A DNA stretch of 64,000 nt from an uncultured Acidobacteriota bacterium. GTDB lineage: Bacteria > Acidobacteriota > Vicinamibacteria > Vicinamibacterales > UBA2999. The notes under the pieces were generated by a model. It did not search any database, had not been told where the DNA came from, and worked only from the letters and a program-made list of their open reading frames with translations. The translations under genes and the position numbers were made by a program. This document shows, piece by piece, positions 46,658 through 61,141 of the stretch. Position 1 is the first letter of the stretch, and each line of letters starts with the position of its first letter. The stretch covers positions 647,161 to 711,160 of the forward strand of contig CAWFGB010000008.1 of the NCBI GenBank assembly GCA_963815285.1, in the 5' to 3' direction.

Positions 46658-49449
46658 TGACCGAGCCAGCACCGAGCAAGCATTTGGCCCTCACTATCGG
46701 GCCCGATTGGCCCCGAGGAAATCTGTGGAGCGCGGGATGGGCGACGTCTACCGCGCCACTGACACTTGCCTGGACCGCGACGTCGCCCTCAAGGTGCTGC
46801 GGCCGAGCTCGTCGCCGATCCAGACCGCAAGCAGCGCTTCATGCAGGAGGCGCGTGCCGCGTCGCCGCGCTGGGGCATCCCACATCGCCGTCATCCACGA
46901 CGTCGGCGAGGACAGCGGCATCAGCTTCATGGCGATGGAGCTGGTGCACGGCGGCAAGCTGAGTGGCGATCGAGGCGAAGTCGTTGTCGACGATGCGGTG
47001 CAGAACTCGCCCCAGATCGCGGAGGCGCTGGCCGCGCCCACAAACAGGGCATCGTTCATCGCGATCTCAAGCCGGCCAACATGATGCTCCCCGGACGGCC
47101 ACTTTAAGGTGATCGACTTCGGCCTGGCGAAGCTGAGCGCGCCTGAGCGTCAGCGGCCAGGCCAACGTATCGCGGCGCAGGCGGTGACCTCGCCAGCACT
47201 GATGACGTGGTGTCGGAATGATTCTCGGCACGGCGGCCTACATGAGTCCCGAGCAAGCGGGGCAGGCCGGTCGACCACCGCAGCGACATCTTCTCGTTCG
47301 GCATCGTGCTCTACGAGATGCTGGCCGGGCGCCGGCGTTCAGCGGGCCGAGCAGCGAGACGCTGCCCGCCATCCTCCGCGGCGAACCCGACTGGACGCTG
47401 CTGCCGCCGCTCCCCTCGGAAGCGCAAACGCTCCTCCGTCGTTGCCTGGAACGCGACTGGCGCCGCCGCCTCGCGGCGATGCCACAGTGAAATTCGTGCT
47501 CGAGGATCGGCGACAATGTCCCGGGGAGCCCCGTTTCCTCGCACGGGCTGCACGCGAGGTGCAGGCCCGCGTTGACTCGGCGGTCGCGCAGGCGCGCCGC
47601 CATGCGTCGTCAGTCGTGTCATTCCGCTGGCCGCGCTTGCGGCGATTGCCGTCGTTGCTGCCGTCGTTGGGTTCGCCCGTGAAGGTACGCCGACTGCGCC
47701 TCCGCCAGTGACACGATTTCTGCTGACGCCGGCCGATGGTCGGCCGCTCAGAGATTTGGTGAGGCTGAAGGCCCTGTCACCCTCAGGCGACGAACTGGTC
47801 TACCTTGACGAAGACCGGGTACTGCTGCGCAGATTCTCCGAATTCGAGATGAGGCCGATTGCGGCAACGAACCTGGGGCGGAGTATCCAGTCGCCCGCGT
47901 TTTCACCGGATGGCGAGTGGATTGCCTACTACTCGGGTTCGGAACGAGCCGTCAAGCGGATCAGCGTCCGCGGAGGCGCAGCGCTCCGCGTGTGCGATTT
48001 GCCTCCGTTGTTGAGGCTGTCGGGCCTCGACTGGCATCCCTCCGGGATTGTGGCGGCCACGGGTACCATCGGTGTCGCACGATGTCAGCCCGCAGGGGGA
48101 CCGCCGGAGCAACTGGTAACGGTCAAAGAAGGAGAAACCATACTCGGGGCTCAGCTTCTGCCGGGAGGAGACACGCTGCTGTTGACGATCGCAGATCTGG
48201 ACGCCGTGTCGGGGCGTGGCACGCTCTGGGAGCAGGCCCGAATCGTGGTGCAGACGCTACGCACGGGCGCGCGGAAGACGGTGCTCGAGCGCGGCAGCGA
48301 TGCGCGCTTTGTCAGCAGCGGCCACCTGATTTACGCGGTGGACGGCATTGTGTTCGCGGCGCCGTTCGACCTCCGCTCGGCGGAGCTGAGGGGAGAGGGC
48401 GTGCCCGTGGTGGAAGGCGTCAGGCGGTCAACCAGCGGCGTCTTGCTGCTCGCTGTCTCCGATTCAGGTGCGCTCGCCTACCAACCGGGGCCCGCTGGGA
48501 CCGAGAGGGGACTTCGTGGACTGGCGATTGGTGACCGCGGCGGTACCTCAGCAACATCGCGGTCGCTCCCGCGGCCTACACCCACGTGCGCGCGTCGCGT
48601 GACGGCACTCGCGTAGCCATCGGGGTAGATGATGGGAAGCAGGCCAGCGTTCTGATGTATCCGCTGAGCGGGGCGAGCACGGTCCAGCGTCTGACACTCG
48701 CAGGGAACAGCCGCTTTCCGGTCTGGTCACCGGACGCTCGGTGGATCGTGTTCCAGTCTGACCGCGCCGGAGAACTTGGCATGTGGCGTCAGCGTGCCGA
48801 CGGCACCGGCGTTGCCGAACGCCTGACAACAGCGGCGGGTGGCGAGGATCATGTTCCCGAGGCCTGGTCGCCCGACGGGCGACACCTCTCCGCCAGCATC
48901 AGCAAGCGCGCAGGCGGGAGGAACGAATACGTCCTGTGGGTGCTCACGCTGGATGACAGGAAGGCGACCGCGTTCGGCGTGGCCTCGAACGAGCCGATCG
49001 GGTCGGTGTTCTCGCCGGACGGCAAGTGGCTGGTGTACGGCAAGGGGGGAACGTCCGTGACCGATCCCAACCGCGGTATCTTCGTGCAGCCGTTCCCGGC
49101 GACGGGAGCCGTCTACCAGGCGCCCCGGCAGCTCATGGACTACCATCCCGTGTGGGCTGCGTCAGGCGCCGAACTCGTTTACACAGCGGGAGCAGCGGTT
49201 GGCCAGATGGCCGCCGTAAAGGTGGCACACGCGAGCGGCGTGACGTTCGGAGCGGCTGTGCTGTTTCCTGCGAGCGTCAGCGGCAACCGGCTGTCAAGCG
49301 AACCGCGGGCCTGGGACATGCTGCCCGACGGCCGGTTGATCGGCATCACTTCAGCGACTGACCCTGCCGCGCGTAGTTCCTCGTCCGAAATCCAGGTGGT
49401 CCTCAACTGGTTCGAAGAGCTGAAGGCACGGGTGCCTCCGATCAGATAG
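46658..49449 (+). pseudogene. Ser/Thr protein kinase with TolB-like beta-propeller, multiply frameshifted
   Basis: [44 protein letters not shown] spread over three frames; PD40 repeats; ends VVLNWFEELK. Confidence 0.85.
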
Positions 49450-49605
49450 TGAGACCCGTTTGACGCCGGCCAACAACTCTCAGTCGCCGCCGACGTTTGA
49501 CAGGAGTAACACCATCCGCGCGACGCCCCAGCCCGTGTAATCTCGAGCAAGCAGAGAGCAAGCATTTGCCTTGCCCGTTGCTCTCGACCGCCGTTCGATG
49601 CGACG

Positions 49606-50059
49606 ATGCTCGTGAAAAGCGAGTTCTATAACTCCTCTTCGACCATTTCACCCGATGGGCGGTGGATGGCCTACGAGTCGACCTTGTCTGGTCAATACGA
49701 GATCTATATCGAACGCTATCCTGAGTTCGGAGAGCGACAGCAGATCTCGACCGGCGGCGGCCGTATTCCACGCTGGTCGCGTAACGGCCGGGAACTGTTC
49801 TTCAAGCCTGGACGGCCGGCAGATGCTCGCGGTTCCGCTACAGGTCGGGAGGACGCTCGTTGCCGGGCGTCCGCGAGTGCTGTTTGAAGGCGAGATGCTT
49901 CCCGCTGCGGCCGGAGCCCGGCCCTACGACATGACCCCCGATGGACGGTTCTTGATCATCTGGAGCGCCCAGGCGGACGGTGCCGACGGCACGGTCTCGA
50001 ATATCAACGTCGTGCAAAACTGGTTCGAGGAGCTGAAACGACTCGTGCTGACGAAGTAG
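49606..50059 (+). pseudogene. C-terminal fragment of a third kinase-TolB protein
   Basis: SPDGRWMAYES, frameshift near 49803, ends VVQNWFEELKR. Confidence 0.75.
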
Positions 50060-51523: not shown

Positions 51524-53959
51524 TTACTGCAAGGCCGAATATCTCCCTTGGGCAACGACCGGTGGACCAACGATATTCGGGCGCAGCGACGCCGTCTTCG
51601 TGTGCGCTTTGTTGCGATACATCCGACGATCCGCTCGCGCCAGCAACCGCTCGTAGGTGTCGCCATCCTCGGGAAAAGTGCTGACGCCGGCGCTCACGTG
51701 CAGTTCAAGCGCGTCGCCATCTTCGGCGCGAAGCGATAGTGCGGCTACCGCCTCCTGCATGAGCCGTCGACGCTCTTCAGCTTCGGGGCGTGTGCACGAT
51801 GCCAGCAGAACGACGAATTCATCGCCACCGTATCTGATGCACGTATCATAGGGCCGCGTCAGGTCCTGCAACACTCGCGCAACCGCCTGCAGAGCACGGT
51901 CGCCAGCCAGATGCCCATGATCGTCGTTGATGATCTTGAAATCGTCCAGGTCGAACAAAATCAACGAAAATTCCGAGGACGTCCGTCGGGCGCGGGCCAG
52001 TTCGCGCGCTACCTGGAACCGCAATGCGCGGGGATTGGCGAGACCCGTCAGACCGTCCTTGAACGCCTGTTCTTGCGTCCGCTCGAACACAAGGGCGTTC
52101 TGCACGACTGCCGCTACTTGATTTGCCACCTGGTCGAGCACGCGCCGATGATCGTCTGTGTACGCCGCAGTGTCGCTGTGGAACACTGCAATCGTGCCGA
52201 TCATTTCATCACCCACACTCAACGGGCAGACCAGCGCCGAACGCAGATCGAGCTCGCCCGTTGAAACACCTGCCGCCTTGAACTCCACAGCCGGAAGACC
52301 ATTGACCAGCGGCCGACGGTGCTGCACCACCCAGCCGCTCAAACCGTGACCCTCCGCAATCGACGCATTCTCCAGCAGTTCGGCGTGTGGTCCGTTGGCG
52401 AATCGGCAGCGCATATCCTCGTTTCCGCGTCGGACGAAGAGTGCACACGACGAAAACGGCATCAGCATGCTGAGCTTTGCGCTCACGAGGGTCATCGTGT
52501 CCGCCAGACTCATGCTTCGTCCCAACGAGTGCGCAATCTCGTACAGCGTGTATGTCTCGCGTTTTGCAGAAGCGATCTCGGCAAACACGCCAGCACCAAC
52601 TCTGGGCCCCTCGCTTAGTAGCTGGGGAGAATCGGCGGGGAACAGGTGCATGCGACTCGACGTTCCGTCATCCGTCGGCGGCGTCAGCCCCTGTACCATC
52701 GCGGTGAATTGGGCCACGACAACGGGATCGAACGCTTGACCCGCGTCGCGCTGAAGCATGGCAAGTGCCTCGTCTCGTGAAACGGCTGGTCGATACGGAC
52801 GAGCCGAAGTGAGGGCGTCGAAGCAGTCCACAACCGAGAGGACGCGCGCTCCGAGTGGAATCTGTTCTCCGCTGAGTCCAGCGGGGTAACCCCGGCCGTC
52901 CCATCGCTCGTGGTGACTACGAATTAGCGGCGCAACGGCGTACGGGAATCGCACCGCGCTGACAATATCGGCGCCAATTTCTGCGTGCACCTGCATCTTT
53001 TTCCGCTCGTCCGCGGTCAGCGGGCCGGGCTTGGACAAGATATGTTGCGGGACTGCAAGCTTCCCAATGTCATGGAGCAACGCCGCAGCTTCGACTGCTT
53101 GTCGATCGACATCAGGTAGATCCAGACGGCGTGCCAAGGCTGCCGTGTAGAACTGCACGCGCTCGACATGACAACTGCCGCCCTCGTCTTTCGCCTGGAT
53201 GGCGCGCGCGAGCACCTCGATGCTATCGCGATGAAGCTGCGACCACTCGGCTACCCGCTGCTGCTCGTCGGCAATACGTCGGAGGTAGATGCGATAAGTG
53301 CGATAGGTGAGCCCAAGAGGAACGAACGCGAGCGTCGTCTGCCACTGGCCGGCGCTGTGCAACATCTCGATGGCAATGCCTGCGCCGATCGCGCCCACGA
53401 CGTAACTGCTGATACTCCACAGGAAGGTGTCATGCCAGACGCGGAAGACATTGCTGCGTGTCGTGAGCGCCACCGCCGCAGCAACGGCGGACGAGTTGAC
53501 AGCGAAATGCATCATCGCGGCCGCCATCAGCGGCTGCAACGGCGCACCGGGCATCGTCCCGTAAGTGCCTCCGAACCAGGTGTAAGTCGCACCCGCAGCA
53601 GCAACGCTGATCACAACCGTCGCCATACTGAAGAGCGTCTTGTAGGCCGGGTTCCGCTGGTTCATTCGCAGCGTGCACTGGGCCAACACGCTGGGAACTG
53701 CGATCAGCATCGTAGGAGCGGGGCCCAGCAGGAGCAGCGCGGTGAAGTCTACCGCATACGATAGGGAGATGCAGGAGGTTCCCACCCCTATCGGAAGATC
53801 CACTTTGACCGCCGAACTAATCACTGACAGCACGAGCAACGCGGCAAACAGCCCCGGACGCGGAAACTGCACCGATGCGATCGCGGTGGCGATCGCCACT
53901 GTGCCAAGCACAATCACAGAGCACACATATACGCGGCTGGCGAGTGGAAGACGCGTCAC
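51524..53959 (-). CDS. Membrane sensor with HD-GYP, GAF and GGDEF domains
   Basis: N-terminal multi-TM region; LLHDIGK, HHERWDGRGYP; GAF; DGLTGLAN, DLDDFK.IND..GH..GD, RPYD I-site, YGGDEF; GGAGG ribosome-binding site. Confidence 0.93.
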   Translation of the reverse strand: MTRLPLASRVYVCSVIVLGTVAIATAIASVQFPRPGLFAALLVLSVISSAVKVDLPIGVGTSCISLSYAVDFTALLLLGPAPTMLIAVPSVLAQCTLRMNQRNPAYKTLFSMATVVISVAAAGATYTWFGGTYGTMPGAPLQPLMAAAMMHFAVNSSAVAAAVALTTRSNVFRVWHDTFLWSISSYVVGAIGAGIAIEMLHSAGQWQTTLAFVPLGLTYRTYRIYLRRIADEQQRVAEWSQLHRDSIEVLARAIQAKDEGGSCHVERVQFYTAALARRLDLPDVDRQAVEAAALLHDIGKLAVPQHILSKPGPLTADERKKMQVHAEIGADIVSAVRFPYAVAPLIRSHHERWDGRGYPAGLSGEQIPLGARVLSVVDCFDALTSARPYRPAVSRDEALAMLQRDAGQAFDPVVVAQFTAMVQGLTPPTDDGTSSRMHLFPADSPQLLSEGPRVGAGVFAEIASAKRETYTLYEIAHSLGRSMSLADTMTLVSAKLSMLMPFSSCALFVRRGNEDMRCRFANGPHAELLENASIAEGHGLSGWVVQHRRPLVNGLPAVEFKAAGVSTGELDLRSALVCPLSVGDEMIGTIAVFHSDTAAYTDDHRRVLDQVANQVAAVVQNALVFERTQEQAFKDGLTGLANPRALRFQVARELARARRTSSEFSLILFDLDDFKIINDDHGHLAGDRALQAVARVLQDLTRPYDTCIRYGGDEFVVLLASCTRPEAEERRRLMQEAVAALSLRAEDGDALELHVSAGVSTFPEDGDTYERLLARADRRMYRNKAHTKTASLRPNIVGPPVVAQGRYSALQ

Positions 53960-54007
53960 TTGAATACCTCCGCTGTCATCACTGGGGTTACGAAAACAAA
54001 CCTGACA

Positions 54008-55738
54008 CTATCGCGGTGCCGTCAGGTTCGACCAGGACGTGAACTCTCCGTCCGATTGACCTATCAGCGTGTTGCCCCACACGATGTTGTTGCCCCAGAC
54101 GATGTTGTTGCCCCAGACGATGTTGTTACCCCAGACGATGTTGTTACCCCAGACGATGTTGTTGCCCCAGACGATGTTGTTGCCCCAGACGATGTTGTTG
54201 CCCCAGACGATGTTCTGGGCCCATCCCGGTTGGTTCTCGGCGATCACCGGGCCAAAGCTGGCGGCCTCACCCCACACGATCCTCTCCGCCCACTGCAGAC
54301 TCTGATCTGCAATGGATGTCCACGGAGTGTAGCCACTCGTCAGCCACCATGACGAGGTCGGCATCGAGGCATCGATACGACTTGCGAGATCGACGGCCCC
54401 GGCCGCGTTGATTGCCCCGGCGCCCTGGGTGAGATCGTCATACTCCACGCCGAGGTCATCCCGCACTCGGATCGCCGTGTATTGAACAATCGCCTTGACG
54501 GCATTCGGTGTGAGGGCTGTCTGTGTTAGGAATGCGTTTCGATTTGCCTCCAACACCAGGGCAACAGCTCCTGTGACAACGCCCGCTGCCATGCTGGTAC
54601 CGCTCAGGCGCAAATACGCGCCCTCTGTGACCTCCGGATGATTCACGTAGAGCGTGCTCTCTGTGGCGGCAACTGACGCAAGCCGATGCCCCGGCGCAAC
54701 GATATCGGGCTTTGCCGTGCCGTCGTACCAAGTCGGACCTCGCGAGCTGTACACGGTCACGCGATCGTCGCTTCGCACGTTGGTAGCGAACGTATTGACG
54801 GCGCCAACGGTGATTGCCGATGGCGCGTTGCCGGGGGAGAGGACTCCCGCATAGCCAGGCAGGCCTGTCGACGGCGACGTCCCGTAGTTGCCCGCAGCGA
54901 CGACCACGACGATACCGGCACGGACCGCTGCTTCGACCGCCTGCACCAGCGGGTCCGACGCGGCAGGTTCGTAGATGGGGTGTCCGAGCGAGAGATTGAT
55001 GATGTCGATGCCAAGCCGGGCTTTGTTCGCCGTCACGAATTCAAGCGCGCTGATCACGTGACTCGTCAACCCAGCGCCTCTTTCATCGAGCACTTTCAGT
55101 GCCACGAGCCGGGCTTTAGGCGCCACGCCTCGATAGCGCTTGCTGGAGAGTTCACCATTACCTGCGATGAGACCAGCGACGTGAGTTCCGTGGCCATATA
55201 AATCTGCCGCGGGCGCTGCGTGCCCACCCTGCGTGAAGTCGTAGAAGCCGGCGATCCGGTCGTCGAATTCAGGTCCCGGCTCCAAGCCGGAGTCGATGAG
55301 CGCCACACCCACGCGATTGCCTGTCGGCAATTGCCCGGGCAGACCGAGCGTGCTGCGAAGAGTTGAATCTGTCGAAGAGGTCTGCTCCGCAACCACCACC
55401 GCATCGCTCGAGATCGTCACGACGAACGGTAGCCGTGCGAGTGCCTCGAGCTGCGGAATCTTGACGAAGGCGGTTGCGGCGTTAATCAGCGGGTGAACAC
55501 GAAGTAGGTCATTCCCACTGGCGGCCAATGCCGTGGCCAAGCCGGGGACGCCGTCCGGGGTGGTCCGGATGATCACACGCTGAGGGCCCTCGTCACCGCT
55601 ACGAACGCGCGCCGCGAGCAGCGCATCAAGCTTTGAAGCGAGGCGCGACGGCGGCTCGGCGTGTCCGATCAGCGTGGCAATTGTGAGAAGTGCGAGGACT
55701 GAAAAGACTCGTAGTGGACGGCGATGGTTCACGAGCAT
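54008..55738 (-). CDS. Secreted S8 (subtilisin-like) serine peptidase with C-terminal NIVWGN repeats
   Basis: Signal peptide and propeptide; IDSG, HGTHVAG, AAGN, SGTSMA catalytic motifs. Confidence 0.93.
   Translation of the reverse strand: MLVNHRRPLRVFSVLALLTIATLIGHAEPPSRLASKLDALLAARVRSGDEGPQRVIIRTTPDGVPGLATALAASGNDLLRVHPLINAATAFVKIPQLEALARLPFVVTISSDAVVVAEQTSSTDSTLRSTLGLPGQLPTGNRVGVALIDSGLEPGPEFDDRIAGFYDFTQGGHAAPAADLYGHGTHVAGLIAGNGELSSKRYRGVAPKARLVALKVLDERGAGLTSHVISALEFVTANKARLGIDIINLSLGHPIYEPAASDPLVQAVEAAVRAGIVVVVAAGNYGTSPSTGLPGYAGVLSPGNAPSAITVGAVNTFATNVRSDDRVTVYSSRGPTWYDGTAKPDIVAPGHRLASVAATESTLYVNHPEVTEGAYLRLSGTSMAAGVVTGAVALVLEANRNAFLTQTALTPNAVKAIVQYTAIRVRDDLGVEYDDLTQGAGAINAAGAVDLASRIDASMPTSSWWLTSGYTPWTSIADQSLQWAERIVWGEAASFGPVIAENQPGWAQNIVWGNNIVWGNNIVWGNNIVWGNNIVWGNNIVWGNNIVWGNNIVWGNTLIGQSDGEFTSWSNLTAPR
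54071..54214 (-). repeat. 8 x 18-bp coding tandem repeat
   Basis: GTT(G/A)CCCCA(G/C)ACGATGTT x8 on the + strand, encoding NIVWGN on the - strand. Confidence 0.95.
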
Positions 55739-55751
55739 GCGCTCGCGTTAG

Positions 55752-55766
55752 GCAAGTGCCACGCCA
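55752..55766 (-). promoter_or_regulatory. Sigma54 -24/-12 promoter
   Basis: Minus strand TGGC-GTGGCAC-TTGC has the canonical spacing, 13 nt upstream of the protease ATG; an AT-rich IHF-like site (ATTCAATAGCTTA) lies at ~55818-55830. Confidence 0.65.
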
Positions 55767-56537
55767 CCAGCGCGCACCGACCCGTCGTCGCCAGGATCAC
55801 CGCCGTAACAATTTTGTATTCAATAGCTTAAATTGATGAGCTAGATGCAACTGCGTGCCGTTCCGGTCATCGCCCCGGCAGATCGGATTTCAATTTCGAC
55901 CAGTGCGGTTACAGTTCTGTCGTCCCCTTTCGCCGTGTGCAACCTCAGGCCGACGCGATAGAGATGTAGATCTTCTCGACAAAACATCGAAGACCTCCGG
56001 ACCTCCGTCGCAATTCCAGGTCTTGTAGTCAAGACTCGTGCCGCGGCGTCACTGCTGACGCGACCGACAAAGGAGTTGATGGCACAGTTCGGCGCGGGGT
56101 TACCGGTCCGCATCGACGTGACGCTCACCGGGCCGTCACGGGCATCATCGACACCACGGGTCGTTCACCTCCGGTGCCGAAAGATGCTGTGCGCGACGGA
56201 TCTCACCCCGTTTCAACGCGCCTGCGCCGTCGCGGTCTGCGCCGGAGTCTGGGCAGCAGGACATGTGACGGTATTGCCCAAGTGAGACGCCCCGCAAGTC
56301 AGCTGTCTCCGCCACGATCAGGCAAAGAAGTGCAGTTCCGGTCTCCAGGCTCGAACCGTCCGCGTGCACACGTGTGAGCCGCTCGGCGCCCGAAACCGCG
56401 CGTACCACTTCGAGGGGTGTTCTGGCGACGCCCGGCCGGGGCGGACGGCGTGAACACGGGCAAGATCACGGCGATGAACGTGAGTCTTCCCGAGGGCGAT
56501 CACGGATCACCGTACGGGTTCCCGGCTCGGGGCTGGC

Positions 56538-56822
56538 GTGCCGAATCACGCACTGCTAACCATTGCGCCCGGCCTCAACCATCTCAGCATCACCCTTGTG
56601 CCGACCCAGACCATCGGCCCACAAGGTCCAAGGGGCGAAAAAGGGGTTGCGGGGGAAACGGGCGCGGCCGGGCCTCCGGGGGACGAGCGACGGATCACCG
56701 TGCACGAACACCAGCCCCACGGCCGCTGGTCCGAGACCGTGCACGTGGACGGCATGGTGGAGTTGCGCGCTATCGGCTGCACGCTGCTCCTGGGCGAAGT
56801 GTACGAAGGCCTGCCCGCGTGA
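56538..56822 (+). CDS. Short ORF with a collagen-like Gly-X-Y tract, possibly a gene fragment
   Basis: GPQGPRGEKGVAGETGAAGPPG; start uncertain. Confidence 0.35.
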   Translation: MPNHALLTIAPGLNHLSITLVPTQTIGPQGPRGEKGVAGETGAAGPPGDERRITVHEHQPHGRWSETVHVDGMVELRAIGCTLLLGEVYEGLPA

Positions 56823-57018
56823 CGATTCGGCTTGCCTCAAACCTGCAGTGCGCTGACAAGGACGTTGGTGTCAGCGACGACGCGCATCACGAACGCGTGC
56901 GCGACTTCTGAACGGCCTGTTCGACGACCGCCTCGACTTCAGCGTCGCGCATGTCGCCGCGCCTGCACGTCCTCGACCGCGTGTGCGAGAGTTTGATGTC
57001 CTTGGGTCTCACCTGCGC
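56820..57018 (-). pseudogene. Toxin-antitoxin remnant: antitoxin-like C-terminus plus start of a PIN toxin
   Basis: ...EVEAVVEQAVQKSRTRS* overlaps (TGATG) MRVVADTNVLVSALQV*GKP, a PIN N-terminus with a premature stop. Confidence 0.6.
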
Positions 57019-57254
57019 AAGCGCGCGGGGTCGCGTCTGGCCGCTGGTCGAGCGGCAGTGTGGACTCGCCCCTTCTTCGAAGCCCTTGGGTCCTTCGCCT
57101 GCGCGGCATGACTCGGTATCCGGAGATGGTGCATGCCACGACCTGAAGACCATCTGGTAAGCCGTGTGCGGGAAATCCGCATGCATGGTTTGAACGGGGG
57201 TCTTGCCTTCACTCAGTCGGCACGACCGACTGGAGACAATTAGAATCTACCAAT
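57019..57254 (+). mobile_element. Group II intron 3' remnant (maturase C-terminus, domains V and VI)
   Basis: Domain V AAGCCGTGTGCGGGAAATCCGCATGCATGGTTT at 57159-57191; domain VI ending CTACCAAT; upstream frameshifted ..WTRPFFEALG/LRLRGMTRYPEMVHATT*. Confidence 0.85.
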
Positions 57255-58695
57255 GCGCCAGGCTTCAGCGACCTTGCTCGAACAGCTGCGCAGGCTGTTG
57301 GGAGACCGGTTCTCGACGTCGGAAGCAGTGCGCGACCACCATAGCCACGGGGAGTCCTGGCATCCGTCCGCGCCTCCCGACGCCGTGGCGTATCCCGACA
57401 CCACCGAACAAGTTGCCCTGATCGTGCAGTCCTGCCAGGCGGCACGGGTCCCGGTCATTCCTTTTGGCATGGGGAGCTCGCTCGAGGGCCACGTCAACGC
57501 CATCGACGGAGGCATCTCACTCGATCTCACCCGGATGAATCGCGTCCTGCGCATCTCGCCGGATGACCTCGACGTCACCGTCGAAGCCGGCCTCACCCAT
57601 CGCAAGCTGAACGACCATCTCAAGAATACCGGCCTCATGTTCCCGTTGGATCCCGGCGCCGACGCCACCCTGGGCGGTATGGCGGCAACCCGCGCCTCAG
57701 GAACAACGGCGGTGCGCTACGGCACCATGCGGGAGAACGTGCTCGGCCTGACCGTGGTGCTCGCCGACGGCCGCATCATCCACACCGGCGGACGCGCCCG
57801 CAAGTCCTCGGCCGGCTTCGATCTGACGCGGCTGTTCGTGGGCTCGGAAGGCACGCTGGGCGTCATCACCGAACTCACGCTTCGACTCTACGGCCGCCCC
57901 GAAGCCGTGTCGGCGGCAGTGTGCGCTTTCGCCAGCATGCAGGGCGCGACCGCCGCGGTCATCACCACCATCCAACTTGGCATCCCGGTTGCGCGCATCG
58001 AGATCATCGACGAGCAGCAGCTCGAGATCCTGAATCGCTACTCCAAGACAGAGTACGCGATTGCGCCGACGCTGTTCTTCGAGTTTCACGGGATCAGCCA
58101 GGACTCGGTGGACGAGCAGGCGCGAGCGGTGCAAGAGATTGCCCGGGATAACGGCTCGGTGAACTTTCAGTGGGCGACCACGCCGGAAGCGCGCGCGACG
58201 CTGTGGCAAGCGCGTCACGACGTGCTCTACGCGACCCTCGCCACGCGCCCCGGTGCCAAGCCGTGGACCTCGGACATCTGCGTCCCGATTTCGCACCTGT
58301 CGGAGTGCATCCTTCAGACGCAAGACGATCTGCGCCGGTCGAAGATCGTCGCGCCCCTCGTCGGGCACGCTGGCGACGGCAACTTCCACTTAATCTTCAT
58401 GGTCGACACCGGCGACGAGATGGAGATGGAGGCAGTGAAGGCGGCCAACGCACGGTTGGTGGAACGAGCGTTGAAACTCGGCGGCACATGCACGGGCGAA
58501 CACGGAGTAGGGATCGGAAAATTGAGTTACCTGGCTGAGGAGCATGGCGAATCACTGGACGTGATGCGTGCCATCAAGAGCGCGCTCGACCCGTACGACA
58601 TCCTGAATCCTGGGAAACTGATTCCGTCAGCGCGCGGCATGACCACGATGGACGAAAGGCTCACGAGGGGCACGAAGGGCTATAGTTCTTCGTGA
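57253..58695 (+). CDS. FAD-linked oxidase, D-lactate dehydrogenase/GlcD family
   Basis: [53 protein letters not shown]. Confidence 0.92.
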
Positions 58696-58704
58696 CCTTC
58701 GTGT
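58644..58704. repeat. CACGAAG/CTTCGTG 9-bp inverted repeat cluster
   Basis: cacgagggg cacgaaggg ... cttcgtgac cttcgtg. Confidence 0.6.
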
Positions 58705-58720
58705 TGTATTTTTGAACCCC

Positions 58721-61141
58721 GTGGCCAAACGCACGTCCGAACCTTCCCTCTTCGATTTCGACGACACCACAACGCCAGGCGGCGGCAGCCCGCCGCCGTC
58801 CTCCCCGCCTGCCGGTGGCGGCGGATCTCAGGACGGCAACGTGGTCGCGCTGCACGAAGCCGCGCAAGCCCGGTACCTGAACTACGCGTTGTCGGTGATC
58901 ACCTCGCGCGCCTTGCCGGATGTCCGCGATGGGCTCAAGCCGGTGCAGCGCCGCATTCTTTACACGATGTGGCAGCAGAACCTGACGGCTGACGCGAAGC
59001 ACCGCAAGTGCGCCAAGGTCGTCGGTGACGTCATGGGCAACTACCATCCGCACGGCGATGCCGCCATTTACGAAACGCTGGTTCGCATGGCGCAGTCGTT
59101 TTCCCTGCGCGTGCCGCTCGTCGATGGATCCGGCAACTTCGGGTCGCTCGACGGCGATCCGCCGGCGGCCATGCGCTATACCGAGTGCCGGTTGGCACGC
59201 GTCTCCGGCGAGATGCTGCAGGAACTCGATCGCGATACGGTCGCGTATCGTCCCAATTACGACGGCACGCGCACCGAGCCCGTCGTCCTGCCCGCACGCC
59301 TCCCTAATCTGCTGGTCAACGGTGCGACCGGCATCGCCGTGGGTATGGCCACCAACATCCCGCCGCATAACCTTGGGGAGGTGTGTACCTCGCTCATCAA
59401 GCTGCTCGACAACCAGGAGCTGACGAGCGTGCAGTTGTGCCGCTACATCAAGGGGCCTGACTTTCCCACCAGCGGCCACATCTTGAACTCGCAGGCGGAG
59501 CTCAAAGAGATCTACAAAACCGGTCAAGGCTCCATCCGCCTGCGCGCGACCTGGGAGAACGGCCCCGCGTCCAGGAGCGCCAAGACGATCTACATCACCA
59601 GCATCCCCTACGGGCTCGACAAGAATCCGCTCGTCACCGCCATCGGCGACGTCGTGCTGAGCCGCAAGATGCCACACCTCATCGACGTGCGCGATCTCTC
59701 CACCGACGATGTGCGGATCGAGTTGGAGCTGAAGCCGGGCGCGGACGAGAACCTCGTGATGGCTTACCTGTTCAAGCACACGCAGCTGCAGACGACCTTC
59801 TCGGTCAACATGACGTGCCTGGTGCCGATTGAAGGGTCGGACGTGGGCCGCCCTCAGCGGCTCGAACTGCGTGAGGCGCTGTGGCACTTCCTGCACTTCC
59901 GGCTCGAGGTGGTCACCGCGCGCCTCGAGCACGAGCTCGAGCAGCTGCGCCGCCGCATCCACATTCTCGAGGGTTTCGAGAAGGTCTTCGATGCGCTCGA
60001 CGAGATCGTTCGCATCATCCGCAAGTCCGATGGCAAGGCGGACGCGGCCGACAAGATCATCGCCCGCTTCGCGCTCGACGCCGAACAGACGGACGCCATT
60101 CTCGAGCTCAAGCTTTACCGGCTCGCCCGGCTGGAGATTCTGGTCATCCGCAACGAGCTGGCGGAAAAGCGCAAACGGTCGCGCCAGATCTCGGCGCTGC
60201 TGAAGGACGAAGCGTCGCGCTGGGGGCTGGTGCGTGACGAGCTCGAAGAGGTGCAGAAGAAATACGGCGAGCCGCGCCGCACCCGGATCGAGGAAACCGA
60301 GGAGATCGAATACTCCGCCGACGCCTTCATCGTCGAAGAAGACAACGTTGTCATCATTTCTCGCGACGGTTGGGTGAAGCGGCAAAAGGAAGTGAAGGAT
60401 CTGTCCACGACGAGGCTGCGGGAGGGCGACAGCGTGCTGTCCGCCGCCGCCGGCAGCACTCGAGCGAGCGTCGTCTTCTTCAGCAACTTCGGCGTCGCCT
60501 ATACGGCGCGCGTGGTCGATATCCCGGCATCGACAGGTTATGGCGAGCCGATTCAGAAGCTGTTCAAGTTGAAGGACGGCGAGCGGATCGTCGGCGCGCT
60601 CAGCCTCGACCCTCGCGCCATCGGTGAGATTCTCCCGAAGAAGAAGGGCGCCGCCGCGTCAGACGAGCCCCCGGTGCACGCGATTGCGGTGACCAGTGAC
60701 GGGTACGCGTTGCGCTTTTCGCTCGAGCCGTTCGTCGAGCCGAGCACGCGATCAGGCCGCCGCTATGCCCGTGCCGCACAGGGGGCCGAGATCGTGTCAG
60801 CGGCGGTGACGACCGGCGAAGAGGTGGTCATCGCGGCGACCGCGGACGCGCGCGCGCTGCTGACCACCGCCAATGAAGTGAATTTCCTGTCGGGGCCAGG
60901 CCGAGGCGTGATCCTGATCAAGGTGAACTTCCCGGACGACAGGGTGATCGGCGCGCTGGTGTCGAAGGGTGATCGGGATCTGATGACCGTGGAGACGAGT
61001 CGCGGCGCCGAGCAGACGATCAGCACGGCGAAGTACGAGGTGACCGGGCGAGGAGGAAAGGGCCGCGAGTTGTTGCAGCGCGGTCAGTTCGTCAGAGTGC
61101 TGCCAGGCGAGGTGGAGATTCAATCGGTCGGCGAGCCCTGA
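58721..61141 (+). CDS. Type IIA topoisomerase subunit A (ParC-like)
   Basis: [45 protein letters not shown]; C-terminal beta-pinwheel blades. Confidence 0.93.

Follow-up and report, generated by a model that had tools for sequence, protein, structure and literature searches.

The closest described systems and the paired locus

Subtilisin-type proteases mature peptide signals, as NisP does in the circuit with NisK/NisR and as subtilisin, Epr and Vpr do in cutting the Phr peptides of Bacillus. S8 proteases also cut multi-copy precursors, such as yeast alpha-factor with Kex2 and the cyanobactin precursor PatE with PatA/PatG. In the LapD/LapG system, the receptor LapD is degenerate and has a domain in the periplasm, and its partner LapG is a protease of the cysteine class. 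Here, we examined a 64,000 bp stretch of DNA (the window) from an uncultured bacterium of the Acidobacteriota (GCA_963815285.1, contig CAWFGB010000008.1, positions 647,161 to 711,160), in which the gene for an S8 subtilase with a repetitive C-terminal tail precedes a gene for a membrane enzyme of cyclic diguanylate (c-di-GMP) turnover, here called the sensor. The best-supported reading is that the two form a real, conserved protease-sensor module of the Acidobacteriota, in which a secreted S8 protease is tied to a membrane input domain resembling MASE9. The module is apparently undescribed, as no description of the tail or of an S8-MASE9 pairing was found in open-access papers or on bioRxiv.

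The first-pass annotation of the locus had reported two intact genes on the same strand, 48 bp apart, and the open reading frame (ORF) calls, Pfam matches and motifs agree with this. Both genes lie on the minus strand, with the S8 gene upstream and the sensor gene second. Their features are:

54008..55738, minus strand: S8 subtilase gene, 576 amino acids, intact ORF (PF00082)
55658..55738, minus strand: probable Sec signal peptide, approximately residues 1-27, assigned by inspection
55385..55651, minus strand: N-terminal propeptide-like domain, approximately residues 30-118, from AlphaFold2
54416..55321, minus strand: subtilase catalytic domain, residues 140-441 (Pfam envelope; predicted local distance difference test score, pLDDT, mostly >90)
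54215..54376, minus strand: conserved 'cap' after the catalytic domain, residues 455-508, including a divergent RIVWG at 486-490
54071..54214, minus strand: array of eight identical NIVWGN hexapeptides, residues 509-556
54011..54070, minus strand: C-terminal 20 residues after the array (TLIGQSDGEFTSWSNLTAPR)
53960..54007: intergenic gap of 48 bp, from the S8 stop codon to the GTG start of the sensor gene
51524..53959, minus strand: sensor (membrane c-di-GMP enzyme) gene, 811 amino acids, GTG start, intact ORF
53270..53959, minus strand: MASE9-like polytopic membrane input domain, residues 1-230
52718..53218, minus strand: HD-GYP phosphodiesterase domain (HD_5), residues 248-414 (PF13487, E 4.1e-43)
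52103..52513, minus strand: GAF domain, residues 483-619 (PF13185, E 1.5e-14)
51599..52063, minus strand: GGDEF diguanylate cyclase domain, residues 633-787 (PF00990, E 2e-41)

The protease matches Peptidase_S8 (PF00082) over residues 140-441 with 175 bits (cutoff 21.8; E 2.5e-51). The active-site motifs DSG149, HGTH183 and GTSM380 are present, D149, H183 and S382 are invariant in two alignments, and the AlphaFold2 fold of the catalytic domain is confident, in agreement with the intact D/H/S triad noted previously. The N-terminus (MLVNHRRPLRVFSVLALLTIATLIGHA) resembles a Sec signal, judged by inspection only, with a basic n-region, a hydrophobic core and G-H-A before EPP, and its pLDDT is below 50 in both AlphaFold2 models. 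A beta-alpha-beta fold at residues 39-116 (pLDDT 80-96) precedes the catalytic domain in the AlphaFold2 model, and no inhibitor_I9 match was reported in a Pfam scan of the protein. Among named proteins, those closest to the protease bear S8 peptidase annotations from Vicinamibacterales or Acidobacteria. For the catalytic domain, the nearest solved relative is 3afg_A (E 1.2e-40), which we take to be Tk-SP of Thermococcus kodakarensis, a protease with a C-terminal beta-jelly-roll and a C-terminal propeptide. Propeptide-dependent maturation, putative in the window protease, and a C-terminal extension would be common to both, but the match stops at residue 448, and nothing in the PDB sequence set covered the repeat tail.

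Both output domains of the sensor look active from their motifs. HDIGK296 and HHERWDGRGYP349-359 are intact in the HD-GYP domain, as are the GGDEF711 active-site motif and the RxxD I-site at 702 in the cyclase domain (RPYDTCIRYGGDEF spans 702-715). As both catalytic motifs are intact, the sensor is predicted to be an enzyme rather than a degenerate receptor. The locus resembles LapD/LapG in encoding a membrane c-di-GMP protein together with a periplasmic or secreted protease; unlike LapD, its c-di-GMP domains look active and it has no periplasmic domain. A LapD-type receptor was rejected (NCBIfam NF045673, 56.3 bits against a cutoff of 1020; GGDEF intact, no EAL).

The likeness to the NisP and Phr circuits lies in a secreted S8 protease and a membrane sensor in one circuit, with short peptides as the signal. 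Those systems have a separate small precursor gene, histidine-kinase or cytoplasmic receptors and no tandem cores, whereas the candidate signal here is the C-terminus of the protease itself, and its cleavage is putative. With alpha-factor and PatE the locus shares tandem identical or near-identical short cores, sometimes with acidic spacers, in association with a subtilase. It differs from them in that the cores are fused to the protease and that a conserved flanking recognition sequence is at most putative. No modifying enzymes were seen beside the window pair, and a cyanobactin PatA/PatG protease was rejected (NCBIfam TIGR03895, 49.2 bits against a cutoff of 421).

Hydrophobic stretches cover residues 4-201 of the sensor, and the loops predicted to lie outside the membrane are very short. 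The Pfam MASE9 model (PF20972) gave 18.9 bits with the whole protein and 22.3 bits with the domain alone, so that the window domain falls just below the gathering cutoff of 24.3. Among 63 homologous membrane domains, 54 match MASE9 at E<=0.01 (best 5e-10). In the alignment, W175 is invariant and P56, F72, F110, F152, N155 and R228 are nearly so. These homologue matches, the conserved aromatic and Asn positions and the domain architectures point to a relationship with MASE9 at the family level. Nothing better than E 0.13 was found when a profile of the membrane domain was compared with PDB sequences. An exosortase-like sorting enzyme was rejected, as no hydrophobic sorting helix is present at the S8 C-terminus and no Cys, His or Ser is invariant in the membrane domain.

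The accessible part of the preprint on MASE9 by Galperin and Chou (bioRxiv 10.1101/2021.11.05.467447) describes MASE9-HD-GYP-GAF-GGDEF proteins, which have the same domain order as the window sensor, and proposes that a ligand, which is not named, binds inside the membrane. According to the same part, aromatic and Asn/Ser positions are conserved in MASE9 and its outside loops are very short, as in the window domain, and the outputs of MASE9 (HD-GYP, GGDEF-EAL and similar) agree with the architectures found here. The words 'protease', 'subtilisin' and 'Acidobacteria' are absent from that text, and the S8 partnership of the MASE9-like domain is new information.

Conservation and reach of the pairing

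When residues 1-240 of the sensor were used to search 41 genomes (the source genome and 40 relatives), 98 places were returned. Flanks of 6 kb per side were taken for all of them, giving 97 membrane-domain ORFs (86 stretches plus four from the source genome). In 34 of the 97, the ORF immediately upstream is an S8 ORF of the same strand, mostly no more than 200 bp away. A further three (L097, L133 and L140) have an S8 tail fragment at the contig end, and in four the S8 gene is directly downstream instead. Linked members are spread over both deep halves of a tree built from 92 membrane domains, and its well-supported branches force at least eight changes of state. For 31 pairs, the distances among membrane domains correlate with those among the S8 catalytic domains (Mantel r 0.76, a value that 0 of 2000 permutations reached); the statistic is inflated by kinship among the genomes, and the pattern persists between paralogous lineages that are only 25-45% identical. 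A lack of conserved linkage would have refuted the first-pass annotation; the linkage was found to be kept and to recur in deep paralogous lineages. As the linkage is both conserved and recurrent, we consider it very likely, from these sequence comparisons, that the protease and the sensor work together.

The S8-linked membrane domains carry a range of outputs: hybrid histidine kinases (L082, L084 and L093), PAS-GGDEF-EAL (L086 and L099), HD-GYP alone (L126), HD-GYP-GAF (L120, L125 and L137) and HD-GYP-GAF-GGDEF (L131 and the window). In L087, L101 and L110, the membrane domain stands alone. With the output varied or missing, the constant partner is the membrane domain and not the c-di-GMP chemistry. 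The first-pass annotation had linked the protease to a c-di-GMP enzyme; the pairing stands, but the partner is the MASE9-like domain whatever its output.

An orthologous pair is present in another species representative (L194), where the S8 protein is 59% identical and the sensor 60-72% identical. The L194 protease keeps six NIVWGN units, which have seven codon differences, all of them synonymous. The sensor orthologue at L194:3274-5705, on the minus strand, is split over three reading frames, and the adjacent S8 gene is intact.

Several other arrangements were seen. Three repeat-tailed S8 genes are arranged in tandem around one sensor gene in L093, and two in L137. Stand-alone MASE9-like proteins of approximately 250 amino acids are common (L087, L101, L110, L153 and many others), with L087 and L101 having the sensor gene first, then the S8 gene and then a gene for the membrane domain alone. 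In L064, L065, L077 and L081, from the paralogue clade closest to the window sensor (which includes the source-genome copy at C11:226689-229088), a gene for a sigma-54-dependent activator takes the place of an S8 gene directly upstream of the membrane-domain gene, and one for a flavin/nicotinamide adenine dinucleotide (FAD/NAD) oxidoreductase lies downstream.

To cover a wider range, a taxon-blind DNA scan with one genome per species was made for five W-G codon pairs at 18 bp spacing, and at least 119 stretches were returned. Among the 80 of these that were listed, the array falls inside an S8-matching ORF in 29, and two more are array fragments. Among the matches listed, all 31 S8-array loci are from Acidobacteriota, with Vicinamibacterales, Bryobacterales, Terriglobia/Acidobacteriaceae and Sulfotelmatobacter represented, and the remaining 49 are unrelated Gly/Arg/Trp-rich low-complexity frames from other phyla. 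A MASE9-like domain is adjacent in at least nine of the 31, divergently oriented in two; this is a lower bound, as many of the loci end near the S8 gene. In an even sample of the phylum, the membrane domain was found in 46 of 201 genomes, a tally that includes the unpublished genome G086. Six of 18 loci from other classes (L278 is left out of this count) have an S8 hit within the 1.5 kb flanks of the membrane domain.

The hexapeptide tails

The eight identical NIVWGN units and the divergent RIVWG at residues 486-490 are present in the window protease as originally noted. Tandem Repeats Finder reported an 18 bp repeat at 54070-54214 (8.1 copies, 97% matches), and the three variant codons in the array (GGT twice, GTG once) are all synonymous. 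In the conserved cap, W465, W483 and W489 are invariant in 62 homologues. It is modelled by AlphaFold2 as a four-strand beta-meander (strands 473-476, 479-483, 486-489 and 492-495; pLDDT approximately 50-90) with a period of approximately six residues, the same as that of the array. The array has no confident fold, with pLDDT of 25-42 in two AlphaFold2 runs that used different alignments. After it, the start of TLIGQSDGEFTSWSNLTAPR fits the motif N-x-L-I-G-x-S-D-G, which is conserved after the array in the homologues read, and the window protein ends approximately 25 residues short of most homologues.

The tail is a trait of the family, consisting of arrays of 4-20 hexapeptides with the consensus x-x-Phi-Phi-W-[GSA]. 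The units are uniform inside one protein and differ from protein to protein. Examples from sensor-linked S8 proteins are:

L128: DTIMWG, 20 copies
L126: DTIMWG, 16 copies
L120: NTLVWG, 15 copies
L135: DTILWG, 13 copies
L147: DGIIWS, 15 copies by eye, 14 by script
L139: DTIVWA, 8 copies
L099: DNILWG, about 9 copies
L082 and L084: NNIVWG / ENIVWG, 10 and 7 copies in runs

Units in Terriglobia include SSAMWG, SNVLWG and DQSIWG, and seven arrays stop one residue short of the C-terminus.

Comparison of codons between the units of single arrays gave synonymous to non-synonymous counts of 3:0 in the window, 7:0 in L194, 5:1 in L147, 3:0 in L139, 5:1 in L135, 8:2 in L117 and 6:1 in L090. Summed over the cleanest arrays, there are 27 synonymous and 5 non-synonymous differences; with all 28 arrays and their edge units included, there are 93 and 151, respectively (ratio 0.43). 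As each unit has approximately four synonymous and 14 non-synonymous sites, the neutral expectation is approximately 1:3.5. This synonymous bias indicates that unit identity is selected at the level of the peptide and is not merely the outcome of recent slippage; the identical units are thus kept by purifying selection. In L143:6819-8966, on the minus strand, the S8 tail changes from D[TA]IVWG units to RHRVGR repeats. As RHRVGR is the same 18 bp repeat in another frame, there is a frameshift inside this array, either real or an assembly error, and the sequence shows that the arrays are prone to slippage.

No significant match to a repeat or solenoid family was found when ten tails were scanned against Pfam (best E 0.17; range 0.17-0.9), and NCBIfam revealed no repeat family in the S8 tail. 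The array resembles the left-handed beta-helix of Hexapep (PF00132) in its six-residue period and in the order of a hydrophobic and then a small residue, but the ten tails have no PF00132 match even at E up to 10, and AlphaFold2 builds no helix. A Trp in every unit is atypical of the Hexapep family. In two Atlas look-alike clusters, 16% and 28% of members carry Hexapep.

Soil and rhizosphere metagenomes from several studies contain the locus. Three RNA libraries (two studies) yielded contigs that cover parts of both genes at 95-100% identity, with DNA carry-over possible, and the gap between the genes is spanned in a DNA contig from a related strain. In contigs from soil DNA and RNA libraries, the summed depth over the array region (54062-54202) is 20-240x versus approximately 5x in the flanks. 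As this depth comes with many different flanks, the 18-mer coding for NIVWG must be common to many genes or organisms in these soil samples.

Promoter and terminator scans gave site counts no higher than in shuffled sequence; a single weak terminator-like hairpin is at 54020-54004 (minus strand). The neighbours had been described as decayed on both sides, and this was only partly confirmed. On one side, pieces of a PD40/TolB-like beta-propeller repeat protein are spread over at least three overlapping plus-strand frames in 47708-50059 (47708-48616, 48586-49449 and 49655-50059), representing either a frameshifted gene or assembly errors, and the ORFs between 50111 and 51430 have no Pfam match. 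On the other side, the ORFs in 55841-56128 also have no Pfam match, and no gene is recognisable in 55841-57200 apart from a small plus-strand ORF (56538-56822) with a short collagen-like G-x-y run (Pfam Collagen E 6.6e-4, sub-threshold), but the FAD-linked oxidase gene at 57253-58695 is intact. The decay may represent pseudogenes or assembly frameshifts. Further out, an 809 amino acid ORF (58712-61141, plus strand) looks like the A subunit of gyrase or topoisomerase IV, by eye only, and the 574 amino acid ORF antisense to it (58661-60385, minus strand) is probably an artefact of high GC content.

What the protease may supply to the sensor

For the function of the module, we give an even chance to the protease supplying the stimulus that is read by the membrane domain, most likely via the tail motif. 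We infer the direction of signalling, the use of the tail as the signal and any cleavage. The subtilase would be exported by its Sec signal, would mature from a propeptide form and would bear a poorly structured C-terminal array of x-x-Phi-Phi-W-[GSA] units (in the window, eight copies of NIVWGN). Signal flow would be from outside to inside, with the protease providing or controlling the stimulus for the multi-helix MASE9-like domain. The likeliest vehicle would be the tail motif, which could be cut free as short Trp-containing peptides able to partition into the membrane, or could act uncleaved as a tethered multivalent array. The membrane domain would then control the opposing activities of the HD-GYP phosphodiesterase and the GGDEF cyclase, with the GAF domain between them, and c-di-GMP levels would change.

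A number of observations weigh against this reading. No S8 gene lies directly upstream of 63 of the 97 membrane-domain ORFs. The clade closest to the window sensor in the membrane-domain tree is almost entirely unlinked, and a sigma-54 activator is directly upstream in all four of the loci tested there. Three or four S8 genes have as neighbours HD-GYP/GAF/GGDEF proteins that align to the sensor only from approximately residue 185 and so are without most of the membrane domain; the S8 genes in G015:C68, G018:C36 and G013:C29 precede such proteins, of approximately 600-650 amino acids. Five ORFs in the source genome have at least three [IVL][IVL]WG motifs, and the membrane domain follows only two of these five. 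More widely, roughly half of the S8 genes with arrays are not next to a sensor gene. Their neighbours are varied (Ser/Thr kinase-TPR, GNAT, MacB/FtsX and an outer-membrane barrel), and no other recurrent partner was found among them. As so many array-bearing genes have unrelated neighbours, the tail must have a role that is independent of an adjacent sensor. No RNA-library contig covers 53921-54061 or bridges the gap between the genes, but as the contigs break at the repeat, this is uninformative.

Features of the tail itself also count against a released signal. In homologues at 58-68% identity, the units are imperfect and come with acidic spacers that vary (SDD- or DE-type), and some paralogues carry C-x4-C spacers. 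Together with the conserved motif after the array, these look more like the loops of a fold than like cleavable cores, and as the cap beta-meander has the same period as the array, the array may extend the cap. The first-pass annotation had also proposed checking whether the repeat sequence co-varies with the membrane domain of the sensor. With S8 distance controlled, no such co-variation emerged (partial Mantel r 0.03, a value that 2036 of 5000 permutations reached), in a weak test of low power (n=23); in the same set, the unit shows a weak correlation with the S8 catalytic domain (r 0.20, reached by 87 of 5000).

Such features make up the case for the main rival explanation, in which the tail has a structural role, much as in the alternative offered by the first-pass annotation (a beta-solenoid or matrix anchor): its repeats would continue the cap as a beta-meander or solenoid-like fold that anchors the protease or binds a periodic substrate, such as polysaccharide, envelope or matrix. 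The sensor would then merely be co-expressed in a shared programme, for example matrix turnover under c-di-GMP control, and would read neither the protease nor the tail. This is a real possibility that we nonetheless think rather unlikely. It accounts for a tail that is family-wide and often found in genes that are not next to a sensor, for the variable spacers and C-x4-C loops of paralogues, for the conserved cap before the array and motif after it, for the four short cap strands and their six-residue period, and for units that do not co-vary with the sensor; the Hexapep members of the two Atlas clusters are a further point in its favour. However, neither AlphaFold2 run folded the array with any confidence and none of the ten tails gave a significant repeat or solenoid match. 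Co-expression also leaves unexplained why one membrane input domain is constant while its outputs are interchangeable, and why the partners co-diverge.

The most specific form of the proposal that the protease supplies the stimulus would make the enzyme a self-contained pheromone factory, which, once exported, would turn its disordered tail into 4-20 copies of a single Trp-containing hexapeptide by self-cleavage. This seems unlikely as it stands, and the same holds for its second part, in which the lineage-specific peptide would enter the membrane and be bound inside the MASE9-like domain. The units do differ between lineages (NIVWGN in the window; TIMWGD, TLVWGN, GIIWSD and SSAMWG elsewhere), and hexapeptide release would be compatible with the purifying selection on the peptide sequence of the units and with an array that has no confidently modelled fold. 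Of the peptide-signalling interpretation in the first-pass annotation, the conserved linkage survives, but unit and sensor do not co-vary, the partner is not c-di-GMP turnover as such, and the tail is often unlinked.

Alternatively, the sensor could read the products of protease action on other proteins, external or in the envelope, with the tail serving the protease alone, perhaps to localise it or as a propeptide at its C-terminus. The conserved pairing with a membrane input domain, the presence of the tail in unlinked S8 genes and the failure to find co-variation between unit and sensor all fit this, as does the nearest solved relative, 3afg_A, a protease that removes a C-terminal propeptide. 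Nothing points to another substrate, though, and the strong selection for identical units would be left unexplained. The short outside loops, with the view taken in the accessible part of the MASE9 preprint (bioRxiv 10.1101/2021.11.05.467447), favour a membrane-soluble ligand over general peptides, and we consider action on another substrate quite improbable.

Inside-out control of the LapD/LapG kind, in which the membrane protein senses cytoplasmic c-di-GMP and holds or releases a periplasmic protease that cuts a surface target, is suggested by the gene arrangement and by the I-site in the GGDEF domain, but is very improbable given that both catalytic motifs are intact, that the same membrane domain occurs in histidine kinases and output-less forms, that the sensor has no periplasmic domain, that the LapD model scored 56 bits against 1020 and that LapG is a cysteine protease unrelated to S8. 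A chance meeting of two large gene families, each multi-copy per genome, in a window whose sensor groups nearest to a mostly unlinked clade, is scarcely credible in view of the 34 of 97 same-strand adjacencies in 41 genomes, the orthologous pair in L194, the recurrence in other classes and the co-divergence of the partners.

MASE9 is an orphan sensor domain with no known stimulus, and a conserved, co-diverging secreted partner is the first concrete lead to its input. The tail is itself unusual, with up to 20 identical, lineage-specific hexapeptides in which the peptide stays constant while synonymous changes accumulate. With release of the units, the protease would be both enzyme and multi-copy source of its own signal; without it, the tail would be a new kind of repeat appendage on subtilases. 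Should the protease prove to be a pheromone factory, its hexapeptide would be the first ligand for the MASE9-like orphan sensors, and cells throughout the Acidobacteriota would be signalling to one another or to themselves in a new way, with c-di-GMP or two-component systems as outputs. Few soil bacteria are more abundant than the Acidobacteriota, yet their signalling has attracted little study. A recurrent protease-sensor module that feeds both kinds of output would be a substantial part of it.

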